From the NCBI RefSeq assembly GCF_054482525.1, contig NZ_JBTHVG010000001.1: a stretch of DNA of 1,545 nucleotides, one strand, 5' to 3'. Under the pieces are notes generated by a model. The model made no database searches and was not told the DNA's origin. It saw only the letters and a program-made list of their open reading frames with translations. The stretch's first letter is position 1. Each line of letters opens with the position of its first letter. This document shows, one piece after another, positions 1,336 to 1,428 of the stretch. A program made the translations under genes and the position numbers. The DNA comes from a plasmid.

Positions 1336-1365
1336 AAAGTGTTGCGCAAAGCGGAACACTTTTTT
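1336..1365 (+). terminator. GC-containing hairpin followed by a T-run; intrinsic-terminator-like on the + strand, or alternatively an oriT-proximal inverted repeat
   Basis: Stem aaagtgttgcgc (1336..1347) pairs with gcggaacacttt (1351..1362) with one mismatch, loop aaa, followed by further T residues to 1365. No convincing + strand transcript feeds into it, so function is ambiguous. Confidence 0.3.
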
Positions 1366-1390
1366 GGGGTGTCGGGGCGAAGCCCTGACC
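1366..1390. repeat. Right copy of the perfect 25-bp inverted repeat; coincides with the 5' part of the bom/oriT-like sequence
   Basis: ggggtgtcggggcgaagccctgacc is the exact reverse complement of 50..74. Confidence 0.9.
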
Positions 1391-1428
1391 CAGTCACAGA
1401 GCGATAGCGATGTGTATACTGGCTTAAT
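1366..1428 (+). other. ColE1/pMB1-type bom (oriT)-like sequence including the conserved nick-region motif gtgtatactggcttaa
   Basis: Recalled from the pBR322/ColE1 bom region: shared strings gggtgtcggggcg, tgacccagtcac, agcgatagcg and gtgtatactggcttaa occur in the same order and spacing, with scattered substitutions. By analogy the nick would lie in ctgg/ctta at about 1422/1423. Homology is from memory, not a computed alignment. Confidence 0.65.

Follow-up and report, generated by a model that had tools for sequence, protein, structure and literature searches.

Comparative evidence for a conserved stem-loop between the predicted origin and a putative transfer origin of a pKL1-type plasmid

Plasmids of the pKL1 / Col(MG828) family are very common and well-known cryptic plasmids of enterobacteria, about 1.5 kb in size. 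Single-strand initiation signals, among them G4-type sites, phiX-type primosome sites and DnaA-box 'A site' hairpins, occur near origins and oriTs. As summarized in PMC3832669, the replication origin of pKL1 (oriV) lies upstream of rep and holds an IHF box and Rep-binding sites, and a stem-loop goes unmentioned in that summary. A second described system, pEC156, is a small plasmid with two functional borrowed oriTs (PMC4743918). The stretch of DNA analyzed here, referred to throughout as the window (1,545 nt), shares with the pKL1 summary an origin that precedes rep and combines Rep-binding repeats with an IHF box, and unlike that summary it includes a stem-loop, at the boundary between an A+T-rich control region and an oriT-like site where the original prediction had correctly placed it.

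The plasmid family, the replicon type and both oriT types found here are already known, and the stem-loop is a minor cis element of a familiar sort. Like intrinsic terminators, it combines a stem-loop and a T run on one strand with a free loop, a covarying stem base and tolerated G·U pairs; unlike them, it has an internal mismatch, an A/T-rich stem base and 1–3 unpaired T before a G run. Like the repeat of ColE1 (bom)- and R64-type oriTs, it is an inverted repeat that lies 5′ of the nick and is more stable on the nicked strand, whereas it is unconserved among plasmids with the oriT and is not adjacent to the nick region. Like single-strand initiation signals, it is a one-strand hairpin beside an unwinding region and an oriT, but it spans 27 nt only, lacks a DnaA box and a conserved CTG start, and has variable loops.

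By comparison with database records, the window is in essence an entire cryptic plasmid, small and circular, that belongs to the pKL1 / Col(MG828) family. Its whole-length matches, at 96–98% identity, are circular plasmids of 1,560–1,566 bp from E. coli and Klebsiella that are typed Col(MG828) and have one annotated gene each, for a helix-turn-helix protein. The ends of the window join, since a sequence built to span them matches a relative without interruption (99.3%). On the minus strand, repA (667–1146) encodes a predicted 159-residue replication protein with the Pfam domain HTH_36; the homologue in sister plasmids of 1,546–1,553 bp is annotated 'RepA plasmid replication protein'. The tie to pKL1 consists of the Col(MG828) typing and of RepA residues 26–159, which are 86% identical (tblastn) to those of the common 1.55 kb plasmids. 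We regard repA as the sole gene of the plasmid, accompanied by an iteron/IHF/A+T-rich origin and two relaxase-less oriTs. A plus-strand ORF at 1–585 (194 codons), called 'hypothetical protein' in some records, has no Pfam match; it is probably not a gene, because it has no family match, it overlaps the R64-type oriT and a stop interrupts its version in the E. albertii relative (L053).

Proceeding away from repA, the elements of the putative origin follow in the order promoter-like site, repeats, A+T-rich stretch with an IHF-like site, and hairpin. The promoter scan places the repA promoter-like site on the minus strand, with its -35 element at 1205 to 1200 and its -10 element at 1182 to 1177, and it is overlapped by 21-nt direct repeats (1166–1231). 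These, together with the inverted and direct repeats TAGCTCACACATGCGTGAGCTAACC at 1222–1272 (pair TAGCTCAC..GTGAGCTAACC), are taken as RepA-binding sites. The A+T-rich stretch (1273–1335) and, within it, the IHF-consensus-like site AATCAATAACTTA (1294–1306) are both conserved across the Rep family. The window thus has an HTH RepA with putative Rep-binding repeats and an IHF-like box upstream of its gene.

Beyond the hairpin, on the plus strand, lies a second inverted repeat, GGGGTGTCGGGGC-GAA-GCCCTGACC (1366–1390), itself a hairpin and common to thousands of ColE1-type and IncI-type oriTs. It is followed by CAGTCAC..GTGTATACTGG/CTTA, within a ColE1/MbeA-type nick region (CAGTCACAGAGCGATAGCGATGTGTATACTGG/CTTA, 1391–1426). 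This ColE1 (bom)-type oriT is matched by 4,338 plasmid records, 4,007 of them typed mobilizable, and the sampled matches adjoin MobC/MbeD genes and carry MOBP typing. By analogy with ColE1 we take the nick to fall between 1422 and 1423. The plus strand is the one that a ColE1-type relaxase would nick and transfer, the usual arrangement being a repeat 5′ of the nick. The other oriT, of the IncI/R64 NikAB type, occupies 1–74 on the minus strand, with a copy of the repeat at 74 to 50 and then a NikA-type repeat and nick region at 45 to 1, and crosses the circular junction into 1545–1537 (..ATTTGCACAT|CCTGTCCCG). The region beside nikA-nikB in a conjugative plasmid of the IncI-gamma/K1 type matches it at 92%, and matches to it were found in 1,912 conjugative plasmids. 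The plasmid would accordingly be classed as a relaxase-less hitchhiker with two oriTs; the literature found on MG828 with oriT consisted of surveillance papers only. The two oriTs are convergent, at 1366–1426 (plus) and at 74 to 1 with 1545 to 1537 (minus), and the distal repeat of both is one perfect 25-nt inverted repeat, GGGGTGTCGGGGCGAAGCCCTGACC, at 50–74 and 1366–1390, whose copies bracket about 205 bp across the junction.

The stem-loop between these regions (plus strand, 1336–1362) consists of the arm AAAGTGTTGCGC (1336–1347), the loop AAA (1348–1350) and the arm GCGGAACACTTT (1351–1362). Eleven of the 12 positions pair, G1344 and G1354 being mismatched, and the inverted-repeat search gives the 12-nt arms as 92% complementary. 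The run of six T at 1360–1365 overlaps the stem: 1360–1362 are stem bases that pair with AAA, and only 1363–1365 are unpaired, followed by GGGG. As RNA the hairpin folds with a centroid energy of -14.4 kcal/mol, and the 50-nt region has z = -2.6, with 1 of 200 shuffles folding equally well; as plus-strand single-stranded DNA, the hairpin and the neighboring oriT repeat together give z = -5.1, a stability reached by 0 of 200 shuffles. The window contains no second hairpin with 12-nt arms, at most one mismatch and a loop of 3–8 nt, and a comparable one arises in 3 of 300 dinucleotide-preserving shuffles of the window (1%). Arms, fold and shuffles all bear out the hairpin and T run that had been proposed at 1336–1365. 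An Rfam search of the whole window (E up to 10) returned chance-level matches only, none of them at the hairpin.

The two strands differ in folding. For hairpin and oriT repeat together as single-stranded DNA, the plus strand of the window folds at -18.5 kcal/mol versus -13.4 for the minus strand, and in the common sister lineage (lineage B, below) the values are -20.6 and -16.0, an advantage of 4.6–5.1 kcal/mol that comes from imperfect pairs being G·T when read on the plus strand. The majority T·G allele of lineage B is a wobble on the plus strand and C·A on the minus strand. This bias fits either a plus-strand RNA or plus-strand single-stranded DNA.

Metagenome contigs scanned with the IHF-like site and the oriT repeat as anchors yielded 34 loci which, combined with plasmid records, provide 12 distinct variants in four lineages: A, that of the window; B, a common sister (e.g., L002); B', the lineage of L053 from E. 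albertii; and C, represented by L052, a bacteriocin plasmid of 2.8 kb. The lineage B hairpin in L002, AAGGGTGTTGCG-CGCAA-CGCAACGCCCTT, has the same place and register and only T or TT before the G run, and that of lineage C reads AATAGTGTTGC-GCGTTAA-GCAACACTATT. Across the 12 variants the common structure pairs in 97.9% of cells, versus 33–60% when the partner is slid by 1–3 columns. Alignment pair 16-40 is G-C, A-U or U-A, pair 17-39 is G-C or A-U, and pair 19-37 is U·G, U-A or C-G, and the one wobble in lineage B, T·G, is restored to a Watson-Crick pair by two routes, C-G in some plasmids and T-A in others. Beyond these covarying pairs the remaining variation sits in the loop, which changes freely (AAA, GAA, CGCAA, TGCAA, TGAAA, CGCGA, TTGCG, GCGTTAA). 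Neither of the two outermost stem pairs is ever G-C; both are A-T in nearly all variants, except that the outermost is G·T in the two rows of lineage A. On the 3′ side of the stem TTT and then G is found in all variants; the T run is T6 in the window and T3–T4 in lineages B and C, and the commonest lineage has 1–2 unpaired T. The distance from the hairpin to the IHF-like site is a constant 56 nt in lineages A and B. The hairpin is real, and these comparisons are good evidence that selection maintains its fold and not its sequence alone, the independent lineages being few (three or four). Two natural deletion variants, L055 and L056, retain the hairpin and are uninformative on its role; L055, a linear record from which the iterons are missing, is possibly an assembly artefact. 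A further copy of the hairpin core GTGTTGC is present on the minus strand in lineages B and C (L002 1212–1218 and the equivalent places of L052 and L053), where it overlaps the likely -35 region of the repA promoter; it is absent from the window.

A segment-by-segment comparison of the window with L002 shows how the stem-loop is inherited. Identity is 97–99% over 1–666, falls to 80% in repA codons 26–159 and to 51% in codons 1–25, is 50% in the promoter and iterons and 51% in the A+T-rich stretch, stands at 67% in the hairpin, and then returns to 94% over 1363–1430 and 87% over 1431–1545. The breaks lie at the repA stop codon and at 1362/1363, between the stem and the free T run. Since a divergent cassette (667–1362) is thus set within a backbone of about 850 bp that is 87–99% identical, these plasmids are mosaics, and the stem-loop forms the outer end of a replicon cassette comprising repA, the RepA-binding repeats, the IHF/A+T-rich region and the stem-loop itself. 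The pattern suggests that whole replicon cassettes have been exchanged between near-identical backbones.

The hairpin goes with rep and the origin, not with the flanking backbone; it adjoins the ColE1-type oriT without belonging to it. Among the 4,338 oriT records, 358 reach the hairpin (covering at least 80% of the 1320–1430 query), a number close to that of the records carrying the replicon (364 and 37), and most oriT alignments begin at window positions 1359–1367. The DNA 5′ of the shared oriT repeat is unrelated between plasmids and often has a short T run and G just before the repeat, so the T run may lie partly within the oriT edge. The hairpin is kept in L054, which has lost the ColE1 repeat and nick region, and it is also kept where other DNA follows, in a copy at position 1 of L025 and in L026. 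In L054 the deletion of the ColE1 repeat and nick region lies between two short TTTG repeats. In the metagenome locus L026 the hairpin and repeat are joined directly to the R64-type arm, the segment between being inverted or deleted there. No family match of use was obtained for the ORFs that adjoin the additional hairpin copy of L025, a contig that may be chimeric. At about 10700–10770 (plus strand) L025 also has a different 10-bp hairpin (TAGGTGATTG..CAATCACCTA) and T8 right before the same GGGGTGTCGGGGC repeat, a case in which the arrangement of hairpin, T run and oriT recurs with unrelated sequence.

How far the stem-loop resembles a terminator was gauged with an approximate d'Aubenton-Carafa-type index, computed with modern energy parameters, so that its values serve for rough ranking only. 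On this scale the plus strand of the window (lineage A) scores +3.8, two variants of lineage B -5.9 and +6.8, lineage B' +0.3 and lineage C -10.1, and the window hairpin read on the minus strand -42. The borderline value sets it apart from the trpL attenuator, rrnB T1 and T7 Te, the controls, which score 22–36, as does its position with no upstream gene or promoter in the same orientation. The terminator scan did not call the site in the window or in L002; it passed over the window site because of the internal G·G mismatch in the stem. The stem itself is a stable, G+C-containing stem-loop conserved by compensation.

That no obvious plus-strand promoter feeds the hairpin had been noted in the original prediction, and the promoter scans agree: no promoter at the scan's consensus threshold lies upstream of it on the plus strand in the window or in L002, and neither a plus-strand gene nor a consensus promoter is found within 1.2 kb upstream. 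Relaxed scans returned TAGACC-19-CATAAT in the window and CTTACA-17-TATTCT in lineages B and C; being weak and unconserved between lineages, these were not accepted as evidence of a feeding promoter. The sole consensus-like plus-strand promoter, GTCACA-16-TATACT at 1393–1420, lies inside the oriT and reads away from the hairpin, which it would reach only around the circle from about 1.46 kb upstream; L002 has TTCACA-16-TATACT in the same place, with 10/12 consensus matches. The resemblance to a plus-strand intrinsic terminator that was originally proposed thus survives as a possible weak one, the borderline index and the T3–T4 of the commonest sister lineage telling against anything stronger. 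As a terminator the hairpin is at best weak, and in the plus orientation only.

Our preferred reading, which we hold tentatively, is that the stem-loop is a weak, plus-strand-specific intrinsic terminator or insulator. It would most likely act as a plus-strand RNA hairpin, stopping polymerase that crosses the origin on the plus strand before it enters the oriT and its internal promoter. The transcription to be stopped would originate in read-around from the 1393–1420 site or in adventitious starts within the A+T-rich region, and we infer that plus-strand RNA is made at the hairpin and ends there. In favor of a terminator we count the T's on the plus side only, the A-T outer pairs, the free loop and the RNA-compatible wobble; two things weigh heavily against it: no promoter was found to feed the hairpin, and its T run is short. 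A hairpin acting at the DNA level in the origin or on the transferred strand is nearly as likely as a weak terminator.

The origin-based alternative, possible although on balance we think it unlikely, holds that the sequence forms a hairpin or cruciform at the distal border of the A+T-rich unwinding region, where it would limit or stabilize opening by RepA and IHF or provide a plus-strand helicase-loading or priming site. Its inheritance with repA and the origin, with the mosaic breakpoint right after it, its survival of oriT deletion or replacement, the unchanging distance of 56 nt that separates it, in lineages A and B, from the conserved IHF-like site, and the retention of the core GTGTTGC/GCAACAC across lineages all point in this direction. 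So do some of the more distant relatives, for which the region downstream of the IHF-like site was compared in plasmids whose RepA is 51–84% identical. Here L013 and L014 have, in an analogous place, mutually compensated hairpins of unrelated sequence, AGATCTC..GAGATCT and AGATCCCG..CGGGATCT, which stand nearer to the IHF-like site by a few bases and lack T runs. The hairpins of L009 and L011 are small, and in the L003 group a hairpin with T5 is the start of a much longer inverted repeat. Against this stand L003, L004, L010, L012 and L015–L017, in which no hairpin was found within 70 nt of the IHF-like site; with so many members of the Rep family lacking one there, replication in the family would need no hairpin. 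Among these relatives, a hairpin beyond the A+T-rich stretch is recurrent, not universal, and need not look terminator-like where it recurs. Also unfavorable to a role in the origin are the missing DnaA box in the stem, the missing conserved CTG beside it, and the absence of such a mechanism from the pKL1 account as summarized in PMC3832669. A DnaA-box hairpin or G4-type priming site is in particular unlikely, with no DnaA box in the stem and the 5′ CTG triplets absent in lineage B. A 72 kb IncF plasmid contains a truncated remnant of a pKL1-like Rep with no origin, which is uninformative here. Several of the smaller relatives (L003, L004, L009, L010 and L014; 1.24–1.44 kb) carry, on the far side of the origin and about 210–330 nt upstream of rep, a different conserved module that, read away from rep, is made up of a CCCGCC..GGCGGG hairpin, a long inverted repeat GGGCATTTTTG.GGTCAAGG ... 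CCTTGAC.CTCAAAAATGCCC and, last, a GGTGGTTGTGATCACGCAGTGAGCGCAACCACC hairpin, after which comes a ColE1-type oriT.

A more specific proposal, which we consider improbable, is that the stem-loop is a DNA-level signal that ends an exchangeable cassette of about 0.7 kb (repA, origin and hairpin), its position coinciding with the breakpoint at which cassettes are swapped among hitchhiker backbones that carry two oriTs and are otherwise nearly identical. The plus-strand fold at the edge of the unwinding region would then be, for example, a helicase-loading or priming site, and the hairpins of L013 and L014 would be the same device in other lineages.

To this we give about the same low credence as to a transferred-strand hairpin, standing at the trailing 3′ end of the plus strand in tandem with the relaxase-recognition hairpin, which could help termination or recircularization, or complementary-strand priming in the recipient. 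The two adjacent plus-strand hairpins with TTT(T) between them, their joint z of -5.1 and their greater plus-strand stability through G·T pairs would suit such a role, as would the lifestyle of a relaxase-less hitchhiker with two oriTs, like pEC156 (PMC4743918). However, more than 90% of plasmids with the ColE1-type oriT lack the hairpin, it diverges with the replicon and not with the oriT, and it is kept in L054 despite deletion of the ColE1 nick region. It also lies beyond the canonical repeat, 27–30 nt farther upstream than this nick-adjacent element and 60–86 nt from the predicted nick.

Covariation of this kind can be mimicked by symmetric changes in the half-sites of a duplex palindrome, and GTGTTGC-N7-GCAACAC, with 7-mer half-sites and a 7-nt spacing alike in four lineages, could be bound by a dimeric protein such as a host factor, RepA or an accessory protein of the helper. 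We consider this quite improbable. The third GTGTTGC near the repA promoter of lineages B and C would favor it, although the window has no such copy; the palindrome is asymmetric, the right half-site being GGAACAC in the window and GCAACGC in lineage B; and covariation is seen at positions beyond the conserved core, as a stem would predict. We know of no protein with the site GTGTTGC-N7-GCAACAC. Binding of RepA is unlikely, as the repeats of lineages A and B differ (AGCTCA versus GCGACA cores) and the hairpin core is shared.

Still less probable is that the stem-loop has no function and is a chance or relict palindrome carried at a module junction. Within the Rep family a single clade has it, and only three or four independent lineages were sampled, as such a relict would allow; but a hairpin of this kind is found in just 1% of shuffles, its pairing is preserved at 97.9% although the flanks are about 50% identical, and it shows three Watson-Crick pairs at one position and a wobble repaired in two independent ways. 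Least credible, and contradicted by the comparisons, are the two other roles first suggested, an oriT inverted repeat 5′ of the nick or a minus-strand insulator of the rep promoter against transcription from the right: the hairpin is indeed an inverted repeat 5′ of the ColE1-type nick and on the nicked strand, but the canonical repeat is 1366–1390, the homology of other oriTs starts at about 1359–1367 and the hairpin diverges with rep and the origin, and in the minus orientation CAGCAGAAAAG follows it, a T run is lacking and the index is -42, which excludes it as an intrinsic terminator of transcription entering from the right.

Taken alone, the hairpin matters little, being a small and fairly ordinary structural element. 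For annotation, it marks the end of the pKL1-type replicon and the start of the borrowed oriT, and the comparison shows these plasmids to be mosaics that combine a replicon cassette with a double-oriT backbone. Were replication, or establishment after transfer, to depend on the hairpin, it would be a new cis element in one of the smallest known theta replicons and would help to explain the persistence of relaxase-less hitchhiker plasmids. Of more interest than the hairpin are the convergent oriTs that share a perfect 25-nt inverted repeat and the apparent swapping of cassettes.

Two further features of the window were noted. Positions 100–190 (CTCTTCCGCTTCCTCGCCCACTCGCTCACTAACGTTCGGTCGCTGGGGCTGCGGCGAGCGG) resemble what we take to be the bom-to-ori stretch of pBR322, which in ColE1-type plasmids holds a primosome assembly site; such a stretch is otherwise unexpected in an iteron plasmid. 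Downstream of repA, at 616–653, the window lacks about 21 nt (AAAAACGGGGTTTTTGCCTGT) relative to plasmids of 1,565 bp in the lineage to which it belongs (L001) and has clustered differences from them; over this interval it agrees instead with lineage B (L002), a second small patch of apparent recombination.
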